Below are positions 19,652 to 50,559 of a stretch of 52,747 bases of DNA, one piece after another. A program made the position numbers and the translations under genes. Location of the stretch: IMG/VR virus record IMGVR_UViG_3300025892_001683, positions 1-52,747 of that record; one strand, written 5' to 3'. The notes beneath the pieces were generated by a model. That model was not told where the DNA came from. It worked only from the letters and a program-made list of their open reading frames with translations, and ran no database searches. This DNA comes from a virus. Taxonomy: Duplodnaviria > Caudoviricetes. Each line of letters begins with the position of its first letter. Within the stretch, counting starts at the first letter, position 1.

Positions 19652-19747
19652 ATAGTTTTTTAGTCCTGTTAGTTTGCTTTAAAATTTTTTAAAGTCTATT
19701 GCATTATATTTTATCTATAATAATATGTCAAGCACTTATTCTTGAAA

Positions 19748-20024
19748 GTGCAACTTTTCTGTTGCCAGGTAAGTTGCCAACCCCGTCACCTAGTTAAACT
19801 AGGCAGCAAGAGCAAAGTTTTCGTTTGCGTCTATCGTTTTGTTCGCGATAACGGTGCTTACATCCCGGTAATCTCGTTCACCTTTAACAAGCCAGTCGAT
19901 CCTAGTTCGCCCCCATCATAAGCACATTAAATTGTCTGTGTTAATCTTCAATGTGCTTATGGTGGAGGCGTCGGGTACTGCCCCCGAGTCCTGTTCTTGT
20001 GACATATGATGCTGTCATCAATTA
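19748..20024 (-). ncRNA. ssrA: Circularly permuted (two-piece) tmRNA; tag ANENFALAA
   Basis: Acceptor piece ends CGCCUCCACCA at 19960; hairpin intervening segment 19959-19915; coding piece starts GGGGGCG at 19914 (G3-U Ala identity pair); tag 19828-19799; GGCAGUA T-loop; outer ends approximate. Confidence 0.93.
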
Positions 20025-20029
20025 CACTA

Positions 20030-20060
20030 TATTTATAACACCTTTTTAAAGGTTTGTCAA
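20030..20060 (-). promoter_or_regulatory. Dual early/late promoter for tmRNA
   Basis: TTGACA-N17-TATAAA, with the -10 box embedded in TATAAATA. Confidence 0.7.
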
Positions 20061-20074
20061 TCTTTTTTTAAGAA

Positions 20075-20165
20075 TGGTAGCAGTGGCCGGATTCGAACCG
20101 ACATCAGCCAATTATCTGTTGCTACGGAGTATAAACCCGCTGTTTTACCATTAAACTACACTGCC
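20075..20165 (-). tRNA. tRNA with UAU anticodon (Ile) and long variable arm
   Basis: GGCAGTG/CACTGCT acceptor stem, A73, CCA; anticodon loop TTTATAC; about 21-nt variable region; GTTCGAATC T-arm. Confidence 0.85.
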
Positions 20166-20171
20166 AAAGAA

Positions 20172-20246
20172 TGGTGGGCCCGGAGAGAATCGAACTCCCG
20201 ACAAGACCGTTATGAGCGGCCGGTTCTACCACTGAACTACAAGCCC
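20172..20246 (-). tRNA. tRNA-CAU, most likely Ile2 (lysidine-modified)
   Basis: GGGCTTG/CGGGCCC acceptor stem, GGCCG-CTCATAA-CGGTC anticodon arm, encoded CCA; no initiator features. Confidence 0.85.
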
Positions 20247-23536: not shown

Positions 23537-24667
23537 CTAAAGTTCGAAACCTTTGAAGGTATCTTTCTCAACATCTTGTTTAACACCCCCAACGATATAA
23601 CTTTCTACTTCTGTTTCTTGTGGAGCAACTTGCAAGCCTGAGCTAGATAGCCAGTGCTGTGTCCACGGTAAAGGATTAGTGTTTAATGGACGATCGTAGA
23701 TTGTTTTAAGTCCTAGTGCTTTTAATCTCTTATTAGCAATAAACTCTACATATGAATGTAGTAGATTTGCATTAAGTCCTACAATTGATCCTTTTGCAAA
23801 AAGATAATCTGCCCAACGCTTTTCTTCTTCAACACACTCACGCCACATTTCATAAACTTCTTCTTCACACTCTTTAGCAATCTTAACAAAATCTGGATCA
23901 TCATCACCTTTCATCCAATGCTTTAAAATGTGTGTAGATAAATTCAAATGTGTTGCTTCATCACGTGCAATCAACGAAATAATCTTTGCAGATCCTTCCA
24001 TCTTCTTTAGCTCGCCAAATGCAAACGTACATGCAAATGATACATAGAAACGTAAACCTTCTAAAATGTTTACAGTCATCATTGCTTTGTATAATTGCTT
24101 CTTGACTTCATACATATCGCCTTTCTTATGATGGAACCAATTGTCTGCAATCTCATTAAACTTGTCGTATTCTTTAGTAACACTTTCTGCTCTAGCAAGA
24201 ATTTCTTTGTCTTCTAAGATAGTATCAAATACTTCGCTAGGATTTGCATAAACATTTTTTACAATGTGTGTATATGAACGACTGTGAATTGTTTCTTGAA
24301 AGTCCCAAGCCACAATACAACTTTCTAATTCAGGATTAGAACAGTATGGTAGGAAAGCAAGACAAGGTCCACGTCCCTGTACACTATCTAATAGTGTTTG
24401 ATATTTTAAGTTACTTGTAAAAATATGTTTTTCTTCTTCACGAAAGTCTTGATAGTCTGCTCTGTCTTTCTGTAAAGAAACTTCTTCAGGTCTCCAAAAG
24501 TAACCTAACATAGTTTGATTAAGTTTGTCATACTCTGGATAACGAAATACGTCATAACGTTGTGTGTTACCGTCTTCTCCAAAGAACATAAATTCTTTAG
24601 TAAAGTCTACTTTCTTTTTGTTGAATACTGTTTTAGCCAATGTCTGTCTCTCTCTCTTTTTCGTCAT
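23537..24667 (-). CDS. nrdB: Ribonucleotide reductase class Ia beta subunit
   Basis: FWRPEEV, LLDSVQGR, ETIHSRSY, LEGLRFYVSF, RDEATH, VAPQETE. Confidence 0.97.
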   Translation of the reverse strand: MTKKRERQTLAKTVFNKKKVDFTKEFMFFGEDGNTQRYDVFRYPEYDKLNQTMLGYFWRPEEVSLQKDRADYQDFREEEKHIFTSNLKYQTLLDSVQGRGPCLAFLPYCSNPELESCIVAWDFQETIHSRSYTHIVKNVYANPSEVFDTILEDKEILARAESVTKEYDKFNEIADNWFHHKKGDMYEVKKQLYKAMMTVNILEGLRFYVSFACTFAFGELKKMEGSAKIISLIARDEATHLNLSTHILKHWMKGDDDPDFVKIAKECEEEVYEMWRECVEEEKRWADYLFAKGSIVGLNANLLHSYVEFIANKRLKALGLKTIYDRPLNTNPLPWTQHWLSSSGLQVAPQETEVESYIVGGVKQDVEKDTFKGFEL

Positions 24668-24675
24668 ACGTTCTA

Positions 24676-27066
24676 TTATATATTACATGCTTCGCATTCT
24701 TCGCCGTCATCAATATCCACAGTGATAGTTTCTTTACCATTCACATGTCCATTAACTCCATTATGGCCATTTATAGTGCCGTTCATTGTAGCACCATTAA
24801 TTTGATTGTCAACTGTAGTTTCTTCCAAACCAGCAGGTTGAACATTCTCATCATCACCCTTAAAGTCATAAGTGTTTTGATAGTAACTAGTCTTCCAACC
24901 CATCTTGTAGGTTGTTAACATATCTTTCATCATAACACTTAACGGTACTTCGTTGTTTTCAAAGTGTGTTGGGTTATAACTCCAGTTACCGCTAATTGCT
25001 TGATCGTAAAACTTCTGCATAGCAGCGACAATATTTATATAACCTTCATTGCTGGGCATATCCCAAAGCAATGTATAAAAATTCTTTAGTTGACCAAACT
25101 GCGGAACAACTTGTTTAAGAGGCCCTTTCTTTGACTTCTTAATGGACAAGAAAGCTCTTGGTGGTTCAATACCGTTGGTTGCGTTTGACACAACGGAACT
25201 GCTTTCTGATGGCATCTGTGCGGACAAAGTGCTGTGCCGTAGTCCGTGCTTCTTAATATCGTTTCGTAAAGTTTTCCAATCATACTGTAACTTCGCCTTA
25301 ATAACATTATCGACATCTTTCTTATATGTGTCAATGGGTAAGATGCCGTCTGCATATTTAGTACGACTGAAGCCTTCACACGCACCGCGTTCTTGAGCAA
25401 GTTCGTTACTTGCAACAAGTAGATAGTATTGGAATGCTTCTGAAAGTTCGTGTACTAGTTTCCATGCCTCTGGATTATCATACTTAACTTTATGCTTTGC
25501 AAGATAGTGTGCAAGGCCAATGTAACCAATACCAAGCGAACGTCTTGATTTAGTGCTTAGTTCAGCAGCCTTAACAGGATAACCTTGATAGTCAATAATT
25601 TCTTCTAATGCTCTTACTGCAAGATCACATAAGTTTTCTAATTCTTCTAGTTTGTTAATTAAACCTACGTTAATAGCAGAAAGAATACAAAGAGCAATTT
25701 CGCCTTCTTCATCATCAATGTGTTGAATAGGCTTAGTTGGTAGTGTAATTTCTTGACACAAGTTACTCATAAAGATCGGATCTTTAAATGAACTGTGTGA
25801 GTTACAATGATCAACATTCATAATATAGATACGTCCTGTTTCAGCACGTTCTTTTAATAAGTCACCAAAAAGATCTCTTGCCTTAATTTTCTTCTTTCTA
25901 AGAGATGTTTTTCTTTCTGCTGCTTCATATACTTCTTGAAACTTATCGTTGTCACCTGAGTAAAATGCATCATACACTTCTGGGACATCGTGTGGCGAGA
26001 AAAGAGTTATGTCTTTATCAGCCAACAGCCTTTCGTAAAATACTTTATTGATTTGAATTGAATAATCTAATTTACGTACACGATTGTCTTCAGTACCTTT
26101 GTTATTTTTAAGTACAAGAATATCTTCAATCTCATAATGCCAAATAGGAAAGTGTGTAGTTGCACTACCACCACGTACACCATTTTGTGTACAACTTCTT
26201 ACTGTGCTTTCGTAAACTTTTAAGAATGGGACAACGCCTGTATGGGCTACTTCTCCACCTCGTATTTTTGAATTGATTGCTCTTGTTCTTCCTGAGTTAA
26301 TCCCAATTCCTGCCCTTTGAGCAATGTAGTAACCGATCGCGCTATTAGAGCTAAAGATACTAGGAAGAGTATCATCCACATCAACAAGAACACAACTGGC
26401 AAACTGACGAATAGGAGTACGCACTCCTGCCATGACAGGGGTTGGTATGTTGATTTTAAAAAGTGAAGTCGCGTCATAATATTTTTTCACGTATGATAAA
26501 CGTGTCTCCTTAGGATATTCAGCAAATAGTGTTGCAGCAATCATCATATACATATGCTGTGGCGTTTCAAAAATGTCGCCGTTACTTCTATCCTGACACA
26601 AGTACTTATCTACAACTTGACGTAATCCAGCGTATGTAAATTCTTCGTTACGATCATGTTTGATATATGTGTTTAATTTTTTTAGTTCAGTGTCTGTATA
26701 TTTTTCTTTAATATTAGAATCGTATACGCCACGCTTAATATTCATATCGATAATTTCTGTTAACGACTGATGTTCGTATCTACCGTAAACTTTTTTATGT
26801 AAAGTATACAGTAACAATCTTGCTGCTGCATATTGATAGTTAGGTGCTTCTAATGATATAAGATCATTAGCACTCTTTACTAATATATTTTGAATTTCAT
26901 CTGTTGTCATGCCGTCATAAAATTGTAAATCAGCATTCATCTCTATTTGAGATGCACTTACACCAGAAAGACCGTTACAAGCCTCATCGACTACAAAGTG
27001 CATCTTATCTAAATTTAGTATTTCCTTGGAGCCGGAACGCTTCGTGATGTAAATCTCTTTTGTCAT
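24676..27066 (-). CDS. nrdA: Ribonucleotide reductase class Ia alpha subunit
   Basis: ATP cone, RQFASCVL, SNLCQEI, QMPSESSS, TSYY, C-terminal CEAC. Confidence 0.97.
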   Translation of the reverse strand: MTKEIYITKRSGSKEILNLDKMHFVVDEACNGLSGVSASQIEMNADLQFYDGMTTDEIQNILVKSANDLISLEAPNYQYAAARLLLYTLHKKVYGRYEHQSLTEIIDMNIKRGVYDSNIKEKYTDTELKKLNTYIKHDRNEEFTYAGLRQVVDKYLCQDRSNGDIFETPQHMYMMIAATLFAEYPKETRLSYVKKYYDATSLFKINIPTPVMAGVRTPIRQFASCVLVDVDDTLPSIFSSNSAIGYYIAQRAGIGINSGRTRAINSKIRGGEVAHTGVVPFLKVYESTVRSCTQNGVRGGSATTHFPIWHYEIEDILVLKNNKGTEDNRVRKLDYSIQINKVFYERLLADKDITLFSPHDVPEVYDAFYSGDNDKFQEVYEAAERKTSLRKKKIKARDLFGDLLKERAETGRIYIMNVDHCNSHSSFKDPIFMSNLCQEITLPTKPIQHIDDEEGEIALCILSAINVGLINKLEELENLCDLAVRALEEIIDYQGYPVKAAELSTKSRRSLGIGYIGLAHYLAKHKVKYDNPEAWKLVHELSEAFQYYLLVASNELAQERGACEGFSRTKYADGILPIDTYKKDVDNVIKAKLQYDWKTLRNDIKKHGLRHSTLSAQMPSESSSVVSNATNGIEPPRAFLSIKKSKKGPLKQVVPQFGQLKNFYTLLWDMPSNEGYINIVAAMQKFYDQAISGNWSYNPTHFENNEVPLSVMMKDMLTTYKMGWKTSYYQNTYDFKGDDENVQPAGLEETTVDNQINGATMNGTINGHNGVNGHVNGKETITVDIDDGEECEACNI

Positions 27067-27244
27067 CTTTTTTTCTTGCCTCTATTCCTTAATTATTTGT
27101 ATAAGGGTATTTATCAGGATTGGTTTTACCCACCCATATTACAGAACAAATGAAGATACCTTTTCTTCATGTGCATTTAATTAGTTTTTATTGTAACAGA
27201 AAGTGTTCAAGAACGCAATAGAAAAAGCGTTCAAAAGCGCAAAA

Positions 27245-28825
27245 TTATACACCGTAGGAAACATCAAAAGATATATTGCCTGTTTGTCCTGTTGTCAAAG
27301 GATTTTTATAGTACAATACAATTGTTTCTACGCCACTGTCCGTATCATTGTCTCTTAGTTCTACATCAAACTGAAAGTTACTCATAATTTTGCCACCCTC
27401 AGAAGTTGTTCCTAAGTCTGAATATTGATACTCATCTGTAAAACTAATCTTCTGTAAGCCGTCACCGACTGTCATAACTAGTTTTCCGTATCTTACATGA
27501 ACACCTAATCTTAAAATGTAGTTTAACGATATAAAATTGTTTAATGCGCCGAAGACCGCTACTGGTCTAAAACTGTTAGATAAAAATATCTGTGAATTAT
27601 TTCTATTTGTAATCTGTGTAAAGTCTGAATTTACAACCTCTGCTATACCTGTAATTGTTTCTGAACTTACAATACCTGCATTTTGTTGTCTGTTAGAAAA
27701 ACAATTGTGTACAATGTTGTCAGTACTTTCACCAAACGATATCATTGGCCAAACAGGATTGGCTGCTGTGTTAGTGCTGTTACCACAGTTTGTAAATGTA
27801 GACCCTGTAAATTTAGTTCCTGAACCCCAGTTACTTGTAAACACATATCTACTTACTTCTTGGAATTCACAATCTTTAATTTGCCAATTGTTTGCTTGCC
27901 CACTGACACCAATAACATTAATTGATGTATCGTTAATAAAGAATTTACAATCATGGAAGTCAACTTTAGTATCAGTTACAATTGTTTGACTACACTTAAC
28001 ACTCAAAGCATTGCTTTCAAATAAACAGTCCTTAAATTTAATGTCGTCAACTTTGATACCTGCTGTTGAGTTTGTCCAAAACACTGCACTATCTATTGTA
28101 GATAAGTTAATGCTTGTTGAAGGAGTACTTAATAAGTATTCGCCTTTCCAAGTAACATTTTTAAAAGTTGAATTTTTCAAACCTGATATAACAGTTTGTC
28201 CACTTGACCTTTCGATAGTCAAATTCTCAATTACAATATTTTCTGGTCTGTCGCTACTTGTAAAACTTGAAAGCGCAGTTGTTCCTGCAGATGTAATAAA
28301 TTTAATATTTGTTGTGTCTATTTTAAGTTTTGCACCTGACTGTGTTTCTCCACGTAATATTACATTACTAGGTATCTCTAAGTCACTAGTAAATAGGTAT
28401 TCTCCATTAGGTACTTTTAAGACTTTTTTATATGTGTCGTCAGTATTTCTAAATAGTTCTGTAAATGCATTTACAAATGCTTGGTTAGCAGATGTAGAAC
28501 CATCTGGTACGGCACCATAATCAATAACAGAAACTTCAATTTCATCTACCTTACCTAATAGTGTTCTTGGTTGAGATAATGTAATTGCAGGATCGTCTGA
28601 TGAGAATCTATAACTGTTGGCAAGTTCTAGTATGTTATCATGCTCAGTAATTACTTTAGTATTACCTACATACGGAGCACCTTCTTGAACTGAACCGTTA
28701 CCAATATACAGTTCTTGTGTATCTACTGCCCATGCAAGTTCAGCAGAACTTAACTGCGGAACACCACTGCTTGAATTCTTTTGACCTCTACGGATCTGGA
28801 TTTTGCTTATTTGAACAACAGCCAC
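27245..28825 (-). CDS. Virion fibre/tailspike-like protein with beta-helix
   Basis: VVQISKIQIRRG...ELAW..D..ELYIGNG N-terminus; SVIDYGAVPDG pectate-lyase-like start; late promoter upstream. Confidence 0.75.
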   Translation of the reverse strand: MAVVQISKIQIRRGQKNSSSGVPQLSSAELAWAVDTQELYIGNGSVQEGAPYVGNTKVITEHDNILELANSYRFSSDDPAITLSQPRTLLGKVDEIEVSVIDYGAVPDGSTSANQAFVNAFTELFRNTDDTYKKVLKVPNGEYLFTSDLEIPSNVILRGETQSGAKLKIDTTNIKFITSAGTTALSSFTSSDRPENIVIENLTIERSSGQTVISGLKNSTFKNVTWKGEYLLSTPSTSINLSTIDSAVFWTNSTAGIKVDDIKFKDCLFESNALSVKCSQTIVTDTKVDFHDCKFFINDTSINVIGVSGQANNWQIKDCEFQEVSRYVFTSNWGSGTKFTGSTFTNCGNSTNTAANPVWPMISFGESTDNIVHNCFSNRQQNAGIVSSETITGIAEVVNSDFTQITNRNNSQIFLSNSFRPVAVFGALNNFISLNYILRLGVHVRYGKLVMTVGDGLQKISFTDEYQYSDLGTTSEGGKIMSNFQFDVELRDNDTDSGVETIVLYYKNPLTTGQTGNISFDVSYGV

Positions 28826-28856
28826 TTAATAACTCCTAAATTGTTATTAGTATTTA

Positions 28857-29555
28857 TCAGACTGAGTTGTAATACTCTTCTACTTTATTAAGCCACATAT
28901 CCTGGTACTTTGAAAAAGTGTCCTCTGTTACCTCAAATTGCTGGTATTGAAAGGCTCTACTACACATAAAGATAACGCCTGTCTTAATATCTGTGCCATA
29001 TACTTCGTTATGTGCCATAGCGTATGCCACAAGTTGCAAATAGTAATCTTCTACCCATTCTGCTTTCTTAGGCTTATTAGTTTGTTTGTGGTCCATTATA
29101 GCAGGTTTACCCTTATAAACACCACATAAGTCTGTTGTACCTGAGTATAGCCCTGGAAAGTATAAACTTTGCTCCATTGCCCATACTTCGTCAACATCTT
29201 TAAGTCCGTTCTCAATAATCACATCAGCCATCTTGTTCGCTTGTACGTGTACAGGATTGTTTCCTGGCTGTCTTTGCATACCAACTAAGAATCTTTCTAA
29301 GTTGCCGTGCATTGCAGTACCAACTCCGGCTGCTTCAGTTGTAATACGCCTAGCATTTTCTTCACCAACACGCTTGCGCCATTCAATAAGGTGAGTCATA
29401 TCTTTAGTTGCACCAAGGATAGTTGTAACACTTGGAAGTTTTTCACCGTCTGGTGTAAGGTATACACGTTTACGTGTAACTTTATCATTAATTTGTTTCA
29501 GCTCGTTATACTGATATCTTTCTACGAAGGGTGGTGGTGTTAAAGTCTTTGACAT
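28857..29555 (-). CDS. PD-(D/E)xK exonuclease
   Basis: PSVTTIL, GTAMH, YSGTTD, IMDHKQ, QLVAY. Confidence 0.88.
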   Translation of the reverse strand: MSKTLTPPPFVERYQYNELKQINDKVTRKRVYLTPDGEKLPSVTTILGATKDMTHLIEWRKRVGEENARRITTEAAGVGTAMHGNLERFLVGMQRQPGNNPVHVQANKMADVIIENGLKDVDEVWAMEQSLYFPGLYSGTTDLCGVYKGKPAIMDHKQTNKPKKAEWVEDYYLQLVAYAMAHNEVYGTDIKTGVIFMCSRAFQYQQFEVTEDTFSKYQDMWLNKVEEYYNSV

Positions 29556-29556
29556 A

Positions 29557-30207
29557 TTATAATACTAACCTATTGATTGGTGCTTTATCTTTCATCCATG
29601 AATCATGAAAATCTCCGTGTGCAAACACATTAAATGCTAAACAGTAACGCTTGTCTGTGTTAGATGTCATAGGAGTAGTTCCGTGTTCTAGGTAGGAAGG
29701 AAAAAGTATTGTTGTTCCTGTATTTGGTTTTGCTGACCAATTTTTGCTGTTAAAAATATTCCATTGTTTATATTTTGGTTTTAAGAAACCAAAAAGATTA
29801 TGTGCCTGCGGAGCATATATTTCAAACATACTTTCATCGTCGTCTGGAATATTAATATAACAAGTTCCAGATAGCAAACTGTTATCATGATTGTGTGCAG
29901 GTGCAAAATCACCCTGTTTGTGTACTGTTACCCAACTGTTGGTTATGTAAAATTCTATGTCGTCTTGTATTTGTAACATAGCATGTGCATAACCTTGAAT
30001 AATGTTTACCAGGTTGGATTTGAAACCAGCCATAACAGGATTATCTAATACTAGAGTATCTTCGGAGAGCCAGCCAACGCTTGACTCCATTTCATAATAC
30101 TCTAAGTTTCTTATGTGTTTTGCTACTTCTTCCGTAATCGGCAGTTCTGTAACACAGATTGGCTGAGAAAATAGTGGCAGTAGATCGGCTTTGGGTTCAT
30201 GTGTCAT
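29557..30207 (-). CDS. 2OG-Fe(II) oxygenase
   Basis: SW...HNH.NS.LSG..Y, ILFPSYLEH, R..LAFN; start 30207 lies just behind TTGACA-N17-TACTAT. Confidence 0.85.
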   Translation of the reverse strand: MTHEPKADLLPLFSQPICVTELPITEEVAKHIRNLEYYEMESSVGWLSEDTLVLDNPVMAGFKSNLVNIIQGYAHAMLQIQDDIEFYITNSWVTVHKQGDFAPAHNHDNSLLSGTCYINIPDDDESMFEIYAPQAHNLFGFLKPKYKQWNIFNSKNWSAKPNTGTTILFPSYLEHGTTPMTSNTDKRYCLAFNVFAHGDFHDSWMKDKAPINRLVL

Positions 30208-30239
30208 ACTGTATATAGTACTATCATTTTGTTTGCTTG

Positions 30240-31046
30240 TCAAGTATGATTGGCAATTAAATTTCCCCAAGGATGCATCTTTTCCATTGGTAACGTAACT
30301 GTGAAGTTGTGCTGTCCAATTTCAGATACGCCTGCAATTTTTTCACCTGATACCCAGCATCCGCTAGGAGATGAAGTTCTTCCATTATAAGGTTCTCCTT
30401 TCATATGGCAACTGCTGTCAACACTGATAACCACAATCCTAAAGATACTGCTTATTTGTTGTAACCAAGCAGTGTGCCAATCCCAATTAATCTGATCAAT
30501 TAACTCACCATTGCCACGAGCACCATTCGTGCAGTGTATTAGGATATTGACAGCGCCGTCCTTACAATATTGTTGTGGAAGGCAAGTCATTCCTCCGAGT
30601 GGTCCTCCCCAGAAATCATTGCATACCATAACACCGGCAGAGATACCAGGATGATTAGGAAGTTGAATAGGGTCGGTAGTTGGTGCAGGTTTACATCCTA
30701 ACTGTGTATCGTAAGGTATAATTTGGCTTTTCGGTTGATGATTTACAATCGTTCCTTGGTTGTTAATAATTAAACAATCGTTATATAAGTCTTCTCCGTC
30801 TTTTGCCATTGTGCCTAGGAATAAACCTGTTTGTGTTTCTCTCGATGCATTTAGCACAATCTCTAATGCTTCATCGCTTGAATCATTCGGGCTACTCTCT
30901 CCATACCCGCTCAGCGCACATTCTGGAGTGATTGCGTAATCACACCCAGGATTATCATAAAGAGATTTAGCAATATGATTGGCATTTCTAACAGTGTCAG
31001 AAGTGCAGTCCATTTGTATTCCCAAGAATTTTAAATCACTATTCAT
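30240..31046 (-). CDS. Carbon-nitrogen hydrolase (nitrilase superfamily)
   Basis: TPECALSGY (Glu), QPK (Lys), VCNDFW (Cys) triad. Confidence 0.82.
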   Translation of the reverse strand: MNSDLKFLGIQMDCTSDTVRNANHIAKSLYDNPGCDYAITPECALSGYGESSPNDSSDEALEIVLNASRETQTGLFLGTMAKDGEDLYNDCLIINNQGTIVNHQPKSQIIPYDTQLGCKPAPTTDPIQLPNHPGISAGVMVCNDFWGGPLGGMTCLPQQYCKDGAVNILIHCTNGARGNGELIDQINWDWHTAWLQQISSIFRIVVISVDSSCHMKGEPYNGRTSSPSGCWVSGEKIAGVSEIGQHNFTVTLPMEKMHPWGNLIANHT

Positions 31047-37201: not shown

Positions 37202-37462
37202 TTATCCCTTTGGTCTCTTAGACTCTGTTATTTTTCGTATGCCTCTGTTAAATTTAGCGACATCAGAGCCCTTAATACTATTAATAAATCTTCTTTCTAG
37301 ATCAAGTGCTGTCTGTTCATCATATGTTTTATGTATTAGTTCCATAAGGTTAATTGCACTATTAAGAATATTTGCCGCACGTGATTCTATTATTGCTTCA
37401 GAGTCTTTCCTGTCAGCAATTGCGTTAAGTTCTTGTAGAATTGATCTAGTTTTAATTTTCAT
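37202..37462 (-). CDS. Hypothetical protein
   Basis: ORF track; TRSILQELN...LERRFINSIK. Confidence 0.75.
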   Translation of the reverse strand: MKIKTRSILQELNAIADRKDSEAIIESRAANILNSAINLMELIHKTYDEQTALDLERRFINSIKGSDVAKFNRGIRKITESKRPKG

Positions 37463-37617
37463 ATGCTTCCCTATACAGTGTATTTAACCTTTTACGTTCA
37501 TTATTATATACGGTGTGATATCTATTGTCAACCATTAACATTAGGTGTCAACATCTGTTAGGCACACTCATGCAAAAATAGCACTGACGTTATGCATAAA
37601 AGTAATGAAAAAACCGG

Positions 37618-37666
37618 TTGATTTCTGCTCTAATAGGGGTTATAATAAAGTACGTTTATATAAATA
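37618..37666 (+). promoter_or_regulatory. Tandem sigma70-type and late promoters
   Basis: TTGATT-N17-TATAAT (37618-37646) and TATAAATA (37659-37666). Confidence 0.7.
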
Positions 37667-37671
37667 CACGT

Positions 37672-37838
37672 GAATAGGGCAGTGACACTGTACTATTCGA
37701 CACACAGACACTGGGATAGACCGGGGCAACTTCACAATGCCTTACAAAGCGAATGACGGTAGCAAAGACTACTGACGGTAGCAAAGACTACTGACGCCTA
37801 GAAAAGACTAGGGGTATCATGCTAACCATAAAGCATCC
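37672..37838 (+). ncRNA. Structured multi-hairpin leader or sRNA with repeated GAC-R-stem-NAWAGA units
   Basis: Four hairpins share the loop motif but have three different, complementary stem sequences; begins just after TATAAATA. Confidence 0.6.
37754..37791 (+). repeat. Exact 19-bp tandem duplication TGACGGTAGCAAAGACTAC
   Basis: Seen directly; a diverged third copy follows at 37792-37812. Confidence 0.95.
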
Positions 37839-37858
37839 ATACATCAAAGGAGAAAAAG

Positions 37859-38062
37859 ATGAACCACTTAATACGTGGTCTGATGTCTTGGGTGAATAGC
37901 GGGTCAACTAAAAGTTACCGCTCTGAGCTACTGACTTGGGCCAAAACAGAATACGGAAACGATTGGCAGTATGCATATGAATATATGCTAACGCACAACG
38001 GCCGAGCACCAACATTAACAGAAATAAACGGACCTAGATACTTACGTAAGGAGGTAGCATAA
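37859..38062 (+). CDS. Small hypothetical protein
   Basis: AAGGAG SD; WAKTEYGNDWQYAY. Confidence 0.75.
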   Translation: MNHLIRGLMSWVNSGSTKSYRSELLTWAKTEYGNDWQYAYEYMLTHNGRAPTLTEINGPRYLRKEVA

Positions 38063-38244
38063 TGCGATTCCTACGTAAATTACTCTCAAAACTATTTTGG
38101 TCTGAAAAAGATTGGGTTGAAGATTATCTTAGTCAGTCTACTGATCATGCTGATCTGGAACGCAGGATTAGGAAACTGGATAGGCGCGAGGTCACGCACG
38201 GACCTTTTGGAACTATCACACACCATGGTTACAAATACCGATAA
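38062..38244 (+). CDS. DUF3563-like small protein
   Basis: EDYLSQSTDHADLERRIRKLD; AAGGAGG SD. Confidence 0.7.
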   Translation: MRFLRKLLSKLFWSEKDWVEDYLSQSTDHADLERRIRKLDRREVTHGPFGTITHHGYKYR

Positions 38245-38268: not shown

Positions 38269-38520
38269 ATGTTAATTTGGGAAAGAATAAAAAACACATG
38301 TGAAGCAGTTGGCTATTCAAGAGCAGCATCACAACTAGCATCGCAAGGATACTACGAAGCATCAAAGAATTTGTTACTAGAGAAATCAAAGTTATCAAAT
38401 CAAAAACTAAAAGCAATTCGCAGACTTGAGAAAGTAAAGAAAGCAAAGGCAAACTATGAGCCAGGCGATCATTACTTCAAAGGTAAGAGCGTAGCGTTCT
38501 GGAAAGGGAAGGCAGCATAA
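38269..38520 (+). CDS. Small hypothetical protein
   Basis: GYSRAASQLASQGY; CA-rich leader with AAGGGG. Confidence 0.7.
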   Translation: MLIWERIKNTCEAVGYSRAASQLASQGYYEASKNLLLEKSKLSNQKLKAIRRLEKVKKAKANYEPGDHYFKGKSVAFWKGKAA

Positions 38521-38624
38521 TGATTATTAAATTTTTTCAAGCAGCAATACCTTTAACTTTTATGTTCGGAGTGTTAATTTGTGTAATGACACTTAATGGT
38601 TTATTCTGGGGAGGAGCATTTTAA
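38520..38624 (+). CDS. 34-aa single-TM peptide
   Basis: Translated by hand: MIIKFFQAAIPLTFMFGVLICVMTLNGLFWGGAF; TAATG coupling on both sides. Confidence 0.55.
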   Translation: MIIKFFQAAIPLTFMFGVLICVMTLNGLFWGGAF

Positions 38625-38753: not shown

Positions 38754-38987
38754 TTATTTACGATTGTAGATTGAATATAAAACCCATACAGCAACAAGTC
38801 CAACTAAACCTTGTGCAGAAAATCCTGCAACAATGTTTTGAATGTTAGCAATTATGTTGATGTTTGGCCAGAACGGAATGTTCTGTCCGTTGAACAAGAC
38901 TTCAAGTATGATACCTAAAGAAAGTAAACTTACACCTACTTCCGTTAAGGCACCTGCCCAAGTCTTTACTTTATTAAGAATGTCCAT
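38754..38987 (-). CDS. Small membrane protein
   Basis: Two hydrophobic segments, GLVGLVAVWVLY; GAGGAGG SD. Confidence 0.8.
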   Translation of the reverse strand: MDILNKVKTWAGALTEVGVSLLSLGIILEVLFNGQNIPFWPNINIIANIQNIVAGFSAQGLVGLVAVWVLYSIYNRK

Positions 38988-39195: not shown

Positions 39196-39507
39196 ATGAA
39201 CAAGACGTTTAAAGAAGGTATCGAAAAAGGTGCCGAGCAGTTAGCACAATCAGTGCGTGAAACACTTCCAAAAGTACAGTTTAATAAAAATGGTTACGAG
39301 ATTCGTACCAATGTACTTGATATGGCTAAGTCATTTACAGAGTTTAGTTATAGCAATAAATGGATAGGGTGGGAAGTAACTGCCAAACGTGATGAGAAGT
39401 CAGGGCAAATTATCAACAAAGTTGATATGCCTGAGATTCCAGGAGTAGACCAAGTATTGGAAACTGCTGAGAAGTTCTACGACTTCATCAACACTACCAA
39501 AAAATAA
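39196..39507 (+). CDS. Phage hypothetical protein
   Basis: KNGYEIRT..L.MAK...VLETAEKFYDFI; AAGGAG SD. Confidence 0.8.
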   Translation: MNKTFKEGIEKGAEQLAQSVRETLPKVQFNKNGYEIRTNVLDMAKSFTEFSYSNKWIGWEVTAKRDEKSGQIINKVDMPEIPGVDQVLETAEKFYDFINTTKK

Positions 39508-39627
39508 ACAAGACATATTATAGAGTTCCCTATTCGGGATGAAGCATATTAAAGACCGCATAGCGAAATAATAAAGAGTCATAGGATTGGGTGTTAGTCA
39601 AAAATAGGCTAACACCTTTTCTATTGG

Positions 39628-39656
39628 TTGACAAATACAACAACAGAGTGTACAAT
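39628..39656 (+). promoter_or_regulatory. Sigma70-type promoter
   Basis: TTGACA-N17-TACAAT. Confidence 0.75.
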
Positions 39657-39662
39657 ACACAC

Positions 39663-39791
39663 ATGAATAAGAAAAGAAACAAACTAGAACGTAAACTAGA
39701 TGAATATAATCACACTATGGAATTGATTAGAACTATAGTTCCACTTATAGTTTTAGGGTTGCAAGTGTACATTATATTGAAACTTATATGA
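39663..39791 (+). CDS. Small C-terminally anchored membrane protein
   Basis: ATG 6 nt after the -10 box; hydrophobic C-terminus. Confidence 0.6.
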   Translation: MNKKRNKLERKLDEYNHTMELIRTIVPLIVLGLQVYIILKLI

Positions 39792-48979: not shown

Positions 48980-49234
48980 ATGGCATTAGAAACTAGATCA
49001 CTCGATAGAATCAATCGTCAATTCCGTGAAATGAATGCAGTTGCTCCCAATATGTACTGGCAGCACGGCACACTATGGATAGATACTAACGATAAGGCAC
49101 ATCTTACAATTATAAAAGATGCTATGTTAGAGGACGTTTTGGATATAAAATACACAGTAAAATTTAATTTGCTCAAGGCTACGGAAACAGAACCGTGGGA
49201 CCAATGGGCAATGGATATCGTGGAGGCAGCATAA
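48980..49234 (+). CDS. Hypothetical protein
   Basis: ORF track; follows the early promoter. Confidence 0.7.
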   Translation: MALETRSLDRINRQFREMNAVAPNMYWQHGTLWIDTNDKAHLTIIKDAMLEDVLDIKYTVKFNLLKATETEPWDQWAMDIVEAA

Positions 49235-50559
49235 TGAGAACTCAACCGCAAGACATTATTAAAAAACTAGAAGCCGACAACAGTCGACTAGTAAAAGAGC
49301 AAGTTATTGAAGACGCAATGCAGGAAGGACTAGACGAGTTCTTTGAAGGTCTTGCATGGACACTAGATAAGTTACATACGTTTGGCGTAAAGCAAGTACC
49401 AGAGCGTGTTGAAACTCCTCAGCGTGGACAAGGACTTGCTTGGCAACCATTTACAGAACTTGCAAATGCGTTGTATACTAGAAAACTCACTGGACATGCA
49501 GCCAAAGATGCTATTGAACTTGCAATGAATGTTGCAACAGTAGAACAATGGAATGGCTGGTATAGACGTATCCTTATAAAGGATCTACGTTGTGGCGTCA
49601 GTGAAAAGACAGTTAATAAAGTTGCAAAGAAACTTAAACTGGAAAAGTATAAAGTTCCTGTGTTTGAGTGTATGTTAGCCCACGATAGTGCCAACCATGA
49701 GAAAAAGGTAAAAGGAAAGAAGTTACTGGAGCCGAAACTAGACGGCGTCAGATGCATTACAGTAGTGGACTATGAAAGTAGAGTCGTTACACAATATACT
49801 AGGAACGGTAAGGTCCTGGATAACTTTTCACATATTACAGAAGCATTAGAATACTATATGGATGAGATTGGTCGTTCGTATGTACTAGACGGTGAAGTAG
49901 TAAGTGATAGTTTCCAAGATCTTATGAAACAAGTACATAGAAAGAGTGATGTAAAAGCACAAGATGCTAGACTTGCCCTGTTTGATATTATTCCATTAGT
50001 AGAATGGAAGAAGGGTGAAAGTGTACAAGGACAAAGACGTAGAAGCAAGATGCTTGAAACGTTTAAGAATATATTTGCTGACACAAAATGTATTGAGATT
50101 GTTCCACAAACAGAAGTGGATCTAGATACTATGGTTGGTGAAGTTGAGTTCAAAGACTATAATAAGAAGATGGTTGAAGAAGGCTACGAAGGTATTATGA
50201 TTAAGGACATTGATAGTGTGTATCAATGTAAGAGATCGACTGCGTGGCTTAAGATGAAACCGTTTATTGAGGTTTCATTGGAGGTTAAAGATGTTGAAGA
50301 AGGAACAGGACGAAACGAAGGAAAACTTGGTGCATTCGTTTGTGAAGGTATTGATGACGGAAAGAAAATTAATGTTAATGTCGGTAGTGGCTTTAGTGAT
50401 GCTAATCGTGATGAGTTTTGGACTGGTCGCGCTAATATCCCAGGTCAAGTTGTAGAGGTAAGAGCTGATGCAGTTACACAGAACCAAGACGGAACATACA
50501 GTTTACGTTTTCCAAGGTTCTTAAGATTCAGAGGCTTTATAGCAGGTGAGAAAATCTAA
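49234..50559 (+). CDS. ATP-dependent DNA ligase
   Basis: EPKLDGVR, LDGEV, LFD, EGIMIK, WLKMKP, VGSGF, SLRFPRF; start 49234 with GGAGG SD. Confidence 0.95.
   Translation: MRTQPQDIIKKLEADNSRLVKEQVIEDAMQEGLDEFFEGLAWTLDKLHTFGVKQVPERVETPQRGQGLAWQPFTELANALYTRKLTGHAAKDAIELAMNVATVEQWNGWYRRILIKDLRCGVSEKTVNKVAKKLKLEKYKVPVFECMLAHDSANHEKKVKGKKLLEPKLDGVRCITVVDYESRVVTQYTRNGKVLDNFSHITEALEYYMDEIGRSYVLDGEVVSDSFQDLMKQVHRKSDVKAQDARLALFDIIPLVEWKKGESVQGQRRRSKMLETFKNIFADTKCIEIVPQTEVDLDTMVGEVEFKDYNKKMVEEGYEGIMIKDIDSVYQCKRSTAWLKMKPFIEVSLEVKDVEEGTGRNEGKLGAFVCEGIDDGKKINVNVGSGFSDANRDEFWTGRANIPGQVVEVRADAVTQNQDGTYSLRFPRFLRFRGFIAGEKI

Follow-up and report, generated by a model that had tools for sequence, protein, structure and literature searches.

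A covarying hairpin-array leader RNA in front of a small-protein operon of marine viral DNA

The 52,747-nucleotide viral DNA IMGVR_UViG_3300025892_001683 (Duplodnaviria; Caudoviricetes), analysed at its full length and called the window here, carries at positions 37672-37858 of its + strand a structured 5' leader of ~187 nt that precedes an operon of small proteins and is made up of seven hairpins, four of which follow the plan GAC-R, stem, NAWAGA loop, stem. The leader is a new RNA family that lies outside every Rfam family and outside the cuckoo RNA family of the alphaproteobacteria. Its structure covaries among homologues, it is found in a single copy per record, it is present in RNA libraries, and its linkage to the sole DUF1127 or DUF3563 gene of large related records is exclusive. 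As to its ligand and the consequence of binding, we infer a phage counterpart of the alphaproteobacterial cuckoo-RNA/CcaF1 (DUF1127) module, of which the leader would be the RNA half and in which its loops would bind operon-encoded small proteins that control processing, stability or translation; this proposal is a tentative one that may well prove wrong.

Reading the sequence confirmed all of the hairpins at the places where an earlier, sequence-only reading of the same DNA had put them. The RNA would open at the inferred transcription start G37672 with the 5'-terminal hairpin P1 (37672..37698; GAATAG-G-GCAGT-GAC-ACTGT-A-CTATTC), to which the fold, the starts of RNA-library contigs and the homologues all point. 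A C/A-rich single-stranded linker, GACACACAGACA (37699..37710), kept as ACACA(Y)A(N)AGACA in most homologues, supplies with its last four bases the GACA flank of unit 1. This unit, the P2 hairpin CTGG-GATAGA-CCGG (37711..37724, or from 37707 with GACA), is seen in the fold and in covariation and has a loop that reads GANAGA across the family; P3 (37725..37741; GGCA-ACTTCACAA-TGCC), likewise covarying, has a loop whose sequence depends on the clade, and is followed by the linker CTTACAAAGCGAATGA (37742..37756), which is conserved in two alignments with the family consensus TTACAAGYGAWTGA. Units 2 and 3 are exact duplicates, the covarying P4a (37757..37774; CGGTAG-CAAAGA-CTACTG) and P4b (37776..37793), detected by Tandem Repeats Finder as part of a repeat with period 19 and 2.9 copies at 37754-37810. 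Relatives have 0-2 copies of P4, and in one of them (L001) the position of unit 2 is taken by a first P4 of another sequence, CGATGTC-CAAAGT-GACATTG, followed by a second P4 identical to that of the window. Unit 4 is the covarying hairpin P5 (37794..37815, core 37797-37812; ACG-CCTAG-AAAAGA-CTAGG-GGT) of a form designated type B, in place of which many relatives have type A, ACC-G-CCGG-GGAAGTT-CCGG-GGT; the GGGGTAT after P5 is invariant in the alignments. The last hairpin, P6 (37819..37836; ATGCT-AACCATAA-AGCAT), is seen in the fold and reads TGCTT-TCCTY-AAGCA in most relatives, and an A/C-rich spacer containing the Shine-Dalgarno (SD) sequence GGAG at 37849-37852 completes the leader (37837..37858). 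All of these features are on the + strand, and the hairpins of the array are separated by single bases.

The + strand of the leader folds with -52.8 kcal/mol (z = -3.62, 1 of 200 shuffles as good), and the - strand reaches only z = -1.18 (25 of 200 shuffles as good). On the + strand of the whole 52.7 kb there are nine hairpins that combine an NAWAGA loop with at least 4 bp of stem, and four of the nine lie within 37711-37812. The sequence-only reading had called the stems covarying; within the window this is weak, since units 2 and 3 are identical copies, and the claim therefore rests on the homologues, where covariation is evident. On the raw MAFFT alignment, where misalignment affected the variable hairpins, RNAalifold therefore found no more than P3 and a part of P5, and it was replaced by a hand-drawn structure put on a MAFFT alignment of 59 single-P4 variants, from which a covariance model was built. 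This model matched 82 of 82 sources, once each, in 640 kb. Standard pairs fill 96.0% of the 2114 cells; column shuffles give 80.6%, with none of 500 equalling the alignment, and shifting the partners by 1-3 columns leaves 32-42%. Both sides have changed at 15 of the 27 pairs (331 cells, 97.9 expected). Double compensatory changes affect all four pairs of P2 (99.4% of cells pair) and all four of P3 (99.1%), five of the seven pairs of P4, where the basal C-G, then G.U, and the closing pair are conserved, and two of the seven of P5 (97% of cells pair). None of the five P6 pairs varies, so that this hairpin offers no covariation test, its invariance being partly by construction because the loci L121-L243 were fetched with a P6 pattern. 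The compensatory pattern is already the same in the unfitted MAFFT alignment. The conserved G.U pairs (53 of them at a single P4 pair) assign the structure to the + strand RNA, as they would turn into C.A if the opposite strand were read.

Several further pairings were tried and set aside. A long-range helix between the C/A-rich linker and codons 7-11 of the first reading frame (ORF1) appears in minimum free energy (MFE) folds of the window's clade only and has a mean z of -0.28 over 87 variants. Loop-loop contacts of P2 with P3 and of P5 with P6, and pairing of the P6 loop with the SD sequence, all proposed by eye, involve partners that do not covary, and the P6 of the window lacks complementary bases. 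The idea that the loops are codon-like partners of tRNA anticodon loops finds no support because the third base of the unit 1 loop is free (GATAGA 43, GAAAGA 24, GACAGA 2, GAGAGA 2).

The homologues were gathered from IMG/VR by searches with ORF1, which gave 48 loci, and with the virion protein encoded upstream, which gave 72; a DNA profile of the leader matched 97 of 121 sources, and the exact P6 pattern was present in at least 120 further viral stretches, from which L121-L243, more than half of all loci, were fetched. Among the matches listed there are 102 distinct leader variants with 82 distinct cores. The leader has relatives in at least 120 viral contigs of IMG/VR that come from marine samples, with one copy in each record, and by the covariance model each of five large records (101-307 kb) has exactly one. 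A comparison with Rfam named no family at the gathering score or at E <= 10, only chance-level rows of snoRNAs and lncRNAs, in keeping with the earlier description of an RNA without a name. When the locus and the leader of a relative were compared by blastn with 50,697 phage records, which include the cultured phages, there were no matches or three spurious ones of 25 nt, and tblastn found no counterpart of ORF1 in the phage records. In 185,579 prokaryote genomes the P6 pattern occurs in three contigs of metagenome-assembled genomes only, one of them 335 kb long, and these give no clue to a host. No report of this leader RNA was found in the literature on DUF1127 and phages, on pelagimyophages and on RNA motifs, covered at the level of listings. 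A suspected likeness of the leader to a stretch of transfer-messenger RNA (tmRNA) was dropped, as blastn against E. coli genomes gave no match.

Across the family the order of parts is fixed: late promoter, P1 (variable, from +1), C/A-rich linker ending in AGACA, P2 (stem-GANAGA-stem), P3, the linker TTACAAGYGAWTGA, 0-2 P4, P5 (type A with loop GGAAGTT or type B with AAAAGA), GGGGTAT, P6, A/C-rich spacer, SD and start codon. P4 keeps C-G and then G.U at its base, and has a free middle and a loop CAAAG or CAAAGA/AAAAGA. An independent hairpin parse of the 82 cores counted 54 different stems capped by a small set of loops (CAAAG 47, GATAGA 43, AAAAGA 32, GAAAGA 24, CAAAGA 19), with 5' flanks ending in ACA or TGA. 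The number of units per core is one in 5, two in 54, three in 13 and four in 10, the window having the maximum of four; these counts are approximate because the parser took P3 for the overlapping P2 in six cores. In 1.77 Mb of loci the unit-like hairpins number 76 inside leaders and 41, all weak, outside them, with none convincing elsewhere in the window, so that there is no sign of a regulon.

Two departures from this architecture were seen among relatives. In 13 distinct relatives (L040:2805-2838; L232:1943-1976, minus; L149:7156-7190, minus), and not in the window, a candidate H-type pseudoknot of the pattern GAGC..CCTCA..GCTC-A-rich loop-TGAG precedes P2; its cells pair in 96.7% as against 22-37% with slid partners, and 3 of its 10 pairs show double changes. 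A minimal leader made of P3, P5 and P6 only, without P2 and P4, precedes a gene like ORF3 of the window in L166, L148 and L168 and is also listed for L177 and L200; behind this gene there are ORFs that resemble, by eye, curli-type secretion components and a repeat-rich secreted protein. In many other loci a cupredoxin-like ORF (by eye) of ~140 aa lies a few genes downstream.

The window record is rated 17% complete by IMG/VR. A 306,714-bp relative, 87% complete, encodes the capsid protein Gp23 (E = 2.3e-99), and one protein of the window has relatives of 23-26% identity in cyanomyophages, pelagiphage HTVC008M and Methylophilales phages. By these sequence relationships the lineage that bears the leader is assigned to uncultured, widespread marine T4-like jumbo phages, of whose genome the window would represent ~17%.

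The leader begins 5 nt after TATAAATA, as had been noted from the sequence. This is a T4-type late promoter motif at 37659..37666 on the + strand, with ATAAATA conserved there in homologues, and the leader runs from 37672. T4-type late promoters are placed at -13 to -6 relative to the start. Here the motif is ~6 nt upstream of the start, recurs before late genes and stands in the DNA of a T4-like phage; the window has 17 copies of [ATG]ATAAATA (NATAAATA), of which the gene-rich minus strand carries 15, several of these lying shortly upstream of an SD sequence and a start codon. NATAAATA is the late promoter of cyanomyoviruses, and some genes of T4-like cyanomyoviruses have both an early and a late promoter, as stated in the sections of PMC2984593 used here. 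A sigma-70-like, early promoter, TTGATT-17-TATAAT (37618..37646, +), lies 12 nt upstream of the late one; it is a consensus match only (10 of 12 positions in a consensus scan) and its activity is predicted. Many relatives likewise have TTGAT(T/C)/TTGACT-17-TATATT immediately 5' of TATAAATA.

The position of the start is echoed by the homologues, in which the sixth nucleotide after ATAAATA is a G in 70 of 70 distinct 5' segments, and in the MFE folds of 60 of these the +1 G is base-paired and opens a hairpin. The 25-nt near-palindrome that forms P1 (AATAGGGCAGTGACACTGTACTATT, window 37673-37697) sits upstream of TATAAATA in other clades (L014, L073, L083), where a different hairpin opens at +1; it might function as an operator at the DNA level no less than as an RNA hairpin.

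RNA-library (metatranscriptome) contigs from two studies cover the leader. Two such contigs, from one sample, begin at 37672, exactly the expected T4-type late start; contigs cannot prove an RNA end, and the two starts are a weak hint only. One of them extends to 38185. The leader had been supposed to be cotranscribed with the tiny ORFs behind it, and leader, ORF1 and most of ORF2 do stand together on this single contig (37672-38185), which leaves a single transcript unproven. A break between RNA-library contigs at 37816-37840 coincides with two variants of P6. Contig depths cannot rank the leader against the ORFs, and nothing follows from the gap in two RNA runs that lack cover at 37428-37655.

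The leader lies in a divergent intergenic region whose left flank is the gene of an 86-aa virion protein (37202-37462, minus; PHROG 11854), and four small ORFs follow it on the + strand. ORF1 (37859..38062) encodes a 67-aa member of a 'WAKTEY' small-protein family with 48 related loci; of the 95 distinct proteins encoded directly behind the leader, 94 exceed 40 aa and most belong to the WAKTEY family. The ORF1 protein has no Pfam or PHROG match, and its AlphaFold2 model is helical (predicted local distance difference test, pLDDT, 69.6), with no fold match in the PDB. Just after its start codon is a hairpin ACCAC-TTAATAC-GTGGT (window 37863-37879), which same-clade relatives keep with in-frame changes of loop length, and codons 7-11 (GGTCTGATGTCTTGG) behind it are nearly invariant even at synonymous sites. 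ORF2 (38062..38244) encodes a 60-aa DUF3563 protein (Pfam PF12086, E = 6.2e-10). ORF3 (38269..38520; 83 aa) is the gene most constantly linked to the leader, its BLAST cluster being present in 82 of 86 loci; this cluster includes DUF1127 proteins that share its tail, and when only the ORF3-type core motif is counted the number is 60 of the 86. Its model is a helical hairpin with a conserved disordered tail (pLDDT 80.5), and the C-terminal tail is common to the DUF1127 proteins of relatives (hhalign 96%). Apart from a single stray source label (UPF0264), the relatives of ORF3 are unnamed or hypothetical, and the Atlas clusters closest to it consist of viral hypotheticals. ORF4 (38520..38624; 34 aa) is a hydrophobic protein from the ORF list, with similar short hydrophobic ORFs in relatives. 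ORF1 relatives are found in at least 54 of the 86 loci, and those of a 103-aa ORF (39196-39507) in 52.

The second gene behind the leader encodes DUF1127 in 34 of the 86 loci and DUF3563 in 26, never both, and all of the 20 DUF1127 ORFs sampled were confirmed by Pfam; individual loci have DUF1127 or DUF3563 already in first position. Three of the large records have their sole DUF1127 gene 110-580 nt downstream of the RNA, and the other two have their sole DUF3563 gene 235-370 nt downstream. By hhalign the small families are joined only through the shared tail. An NCBIfam search with the proteins gave no match, and PADLOC gave none at E <= 0.01 for ORF1-4 and the 103-aa ORF; among eight neighbouring proteins it gave two marginal rows, E2 for a 66-aa ORF at 39591-39788 (E = 0.0088) and MTase_III for the upstream 86-aa protein (E = 0.0078). 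The tiny proteins of relatives (L136, L175, L139, L218, L109, L210) are assembled from interchangeable pieces, an N-terminal amphipathic helix, a core of the WAKTEY, DUF3563, DUF1127 or 'ARAA..QG' type, and a C-terminal tag, of which NLKGWV, KEVA and YEPGDHY.RGK.VA.WKG are found on different cores. The small proteins look modular, with cores that are not demonstrably related.

The proposal of a cuckoo-RNA/CcaF1-like module draws on a precedent in Rhodobacter sphaeroides. To our knowledge its CcaF1 is the only DUF1127/DUF3563-type protein with a known activity. A comparable mode of recognition is that of the Smaug SAM domain, which reads hairpin pentaloops on arbitrary stems. According to the sections of PMC8034643 used here, the DUF1127 domain resembles this hairpin-loop-binding domain, and CcaF1, a DUF1127 protein, directly binds the hairpin sRNAs CcsR1-4 of its own transcript; a four-base loop mutation abolishes the binding, the four-copy CcsR precursor is bound by more than one CcaF1, and CcaF1 affects the CcsR RNAs' RNase E-dependent maturation and their stability, these RNAs coming from the 3' UTR, in Sinorhizobium the 5' UTR, of a DUF1127 gene (PMC8034643). 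In the phage leader, stems of free sequence, fixed loops and flanks, variable number and single-base spacing are what would be expected of sites for a protein that reads shape and loop. The earlier suggestion that the ligand is among the small proteins encoded downstream has gained indirect support, in that CcaF1 binds hairpin RNA and that the sole DUF1127 or DUF3563 gene lies just downstream in five of five large records.

In the mechanism that is proposed, transcription would start at G37672, driven by the T4-type late promoter; an early promoter of sigma-70 type may give another start some bases further upstream. The RNA would open with a hairpin at +1, continue with the four recognition hairpins interleaved with P3 and P6, and end in an open SD region. 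In each recognition hairpin a 5' GAC-R would flank a stem that is free in sequence and is capped by an NA(N)AG(A) loop, and the conserved loop and flank would be the site for an operon-encoded RNA-binding protein, likely DUF1127 in many relatives and perhaps DUF3563, ORF1 or ORF3 in the window. The binding of one to four copies of the protein would then determine how the leader-operon transcript is processed and how stable it is, and in this way the translation of the operon, and a stable hairpin RNA might also be released. A bolder version would make this a phage-own module of hairpin-array RNA and SAM-like mini-proteins, in which a late RNA cut from the leader, together with the interchangeable DUF1127, DUF3563 and related proteins, rewires host RNA turnover (e.g. 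RNase E-dependent decay) or titrates host DUF1127 regulators; we regard this as unlikely.

A number of observations weigh against the proposed CcaF1-like module. The window itself has no DUF1127 gene, its ORF2 being DUF3563 instead, and by strict regular expressions neither domain is present in 26 of the 86 loci. DUF3563 is absent from the literature that was found; profile comparison leaves it unlinked to DUF1127 (probability 9%), and it shows no link to ORF1 beyond 14 N-terminal residues. The RNA is constant while the proteins behind it swap, so that a host ligand or no dedicated ligand would fit equally well, and the loops are unlike the CCUCCUCCC cuckoo motif and belong to no Rfam family. 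No switch is suggested by the predicted accessibility of the SD, which has a mean pairing probability of 0.54 across 89 homologues. Moreover, part of the 'one per locus' count is by construction, loci having been fetched with the P6 pattern, and the covariation is drawn from related sequences in an alignment fitted to the model. The binding of the leader by the operon proteins is a predicted one.

If no protein is dedicated to the leader, it might act purely in cis as a stabiliser and translation enhancer, with the +1 hairpin and the closely packed hairpins behind it shielding the late mRNA from 5'-end-dependent decay, and with C/A-rich linkers and an open SD driving strong translation of the tiny ORFs. 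5'-terminal stem-loops stabilise bacterial mRNAs, and a hairpin from +1 in 60 of 70 variants, the single-base spacing of the hairpins, the A/C-rich linkers and the strong SD agree with such a role; it is nonetheless a doubtful explanation, as it does not account for loops, GAC-R flanks, the P4 C-G/G.U base and GGGGTAT that stay invariant while the stems drift, and the other late genes of the window sit close to their promoter. The exchange of ORFs behind a conserved RNA, the multivalent array of one to four like loops and the pyrimidine-rich P6 loop (TTTCCTY), the best conserved part, would also suit a decoy or sponge acting in trans, in which the RNA or a 5' fragment of it soaks up a host RNA-binding protein (e.g. 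a host DUF1127) or pairs with host mRNAs late in infection. Such a decoy is distinctly improbable: the RNA always abuts the SD and start codon, with no terminator or other defined 3' end before ORF1, one RNA-library contig spans leader, ORF1 and most of ORF2 (37672-38185), unit-like hairpins are lacking elsewhere, there are no GGA motifs, and CsrA was not found in the five large related records, in a search in which control genomes gave matches.

The remaining possibilities concern a regulatory element of a known kind. The sequence-only reading had offered an antitermination platform, and a position directly after the promoters, with A-rich loops of 5-6 nt and one-base spacing that may loosely resemble boxB or put, does bring to mind the processive elements of the lambda nut or HK022 put kind, in which hairpins near the promoter would change RNA polymerase so that terminators are read through. 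This explanation is very improbable, since the operon holds no intrinsic-terminator-like site (the first on the + strand is at 38814), no boxA-like element is visible by eye, no Arg-rich N-like protein is encoded by ORF1-3, and sites of this kind do not usually vary in copy number from 1 to 4. A riboswitch or other ligand-sensing RNA controlling the operon would have highly conserved unpaired nucleotides between covarying stems in a 5' UTR, as the leader has. It is hardly to be expected here, where the hairpins stand side by side without a closing helix (mean z of the long-range helix -0.28), whole hairpins are gained and lost, and there is no terminator, no clear SD-sequestering alternative, no other visible expression platform and no Rfam match. 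Tandem repeats of 19-21 nt in a phage might finally suggest a repeat antitoxin-like or anti-defence RNA (ToxI-like, or a CRISPR-repeat mimic), which had also been raised, or a site read in the DNA (iterons, operators). Both are scarcely credible: the units are far shorter than ToxI (~36 nt) or CRISPR repeats, a toxin-like gene is lacking, PADLOC gave the operon proteins no significant match, the region is present in RNA libraries, and stems that change in sequence yet keep pairing, with G.U, favour RNA over sequence-read DNA sites.

Elsewhere in the window, a permuted two-piece tmRNA gene of the alpha type with the tag ANENFALAA lies at 19708-20246 on the minus strand, next to a 91-nt tRNA-Ile(UAU) and a tRNA with a CAT anticodon, and a promoter-like stretch TTGACA..TATAAAT is directly upstream of it. 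The alpha type of the tmRNA hints at an alphaproteobacterial host. Genes of class I ribonucleotide reductase large and small subunits, an exonuclease and a 2OG-Fe(II) oxygenase at 23537-31046 (minus) form an auxiliary set typical of large marine myophages, and an ATP-dependent DNA ligase is encoded at 49195-50559.

The interest of the leader is that of a strongly covarying new RNA family, present once per record in at least 120 marine viral contigs and absent from Rfam and from cultured phages, that ties together late gene control in uncultured, apparently T4-like jumbo phages, DUF1127/DUF3563-type small proteins and hairpin-array RNAs. Since the RNA, the candidate ligands and loop mutants are all defined by sequence, the binding hypothesis is testable in vitro without the host. 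If the RNA and its mini-proteins did act in host takeover, this would be the first RNA-protein device of this kind and the first functional handle on DUF3563 and on two unnamed small-protein families.

Compared with known systems, the leader resembles the CsrB/RsmZ sponges in having many hairpins that present one short purine-rich loop motif in variable number. However, its loops contain AGA and not GGA (units 1-4 are without GGA) and it is not a stand-alone sRNA with its own terminator; with CsrA missing from the large records as well, the CsrB-like sponge of the sequence-only reading finds no support. Like lambda nut and HK022 put, it has hairpins near the promoter whose A-rich loops are pentaloop-like, with a small protein gene behind them, and it differs in having no boxA (by eye), no Arg-rich N-like protein and no downstream terminator, in its loops and in its varying copy number. 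ToxI-type (type III) RNAs, which are known in phages, likewise place tandem direct repeats ahead of a protein gene. ToxI antitoxin repeats are ~36 nt long, whereas the leader units are hairpins of 19-21 nt, with no ToxN-like gene nearby and no significant PADLOC match for the operon proteins. The translational operators of T4 (gene 32, RegA sites) and 5'-terminal stem-loop stabilisers are also elements of T4-type leaders that set translation or half-life, and here too there is a hairpin from +1; but known T4 operators are single sites near the start codon, unlike an array of ~187 nt. A search for RegA in the five records gave no match and is uninformative because its control gave no match either.

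The closest likeness is to the CIN1 cuckoo/CcsR RNAs (Rfam ar14, so named in PMC8034643), which, in the sections of that report used here, carry 1-4 like hairpin modules on the transcript of a DUF1127 gene, in Sinorhizobium in its 5' UTR, have loops that are needed for binding and take up several proteins per multi-copy RNA. The phage family matches them in its variable number of modules (1-4 units per leader in 82 distinct cores). The three large phage records that have DUF1127 carry their sole gene of it behind the RNA; binding and processing in the phage family are predicted by this analogy. It differs in being phage-borne and placed behind a late promoter, in its extra hairpins P1, P3 and P6, in the loops GATAGA, CAAAGA, AAAAGA and AACCATAA without the CCUCCUCCC motif or an Rfam match, and, in the window, in having DUF3563. 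The leader most plausibly works like a cuckoo-RNA/DUF1127 module.

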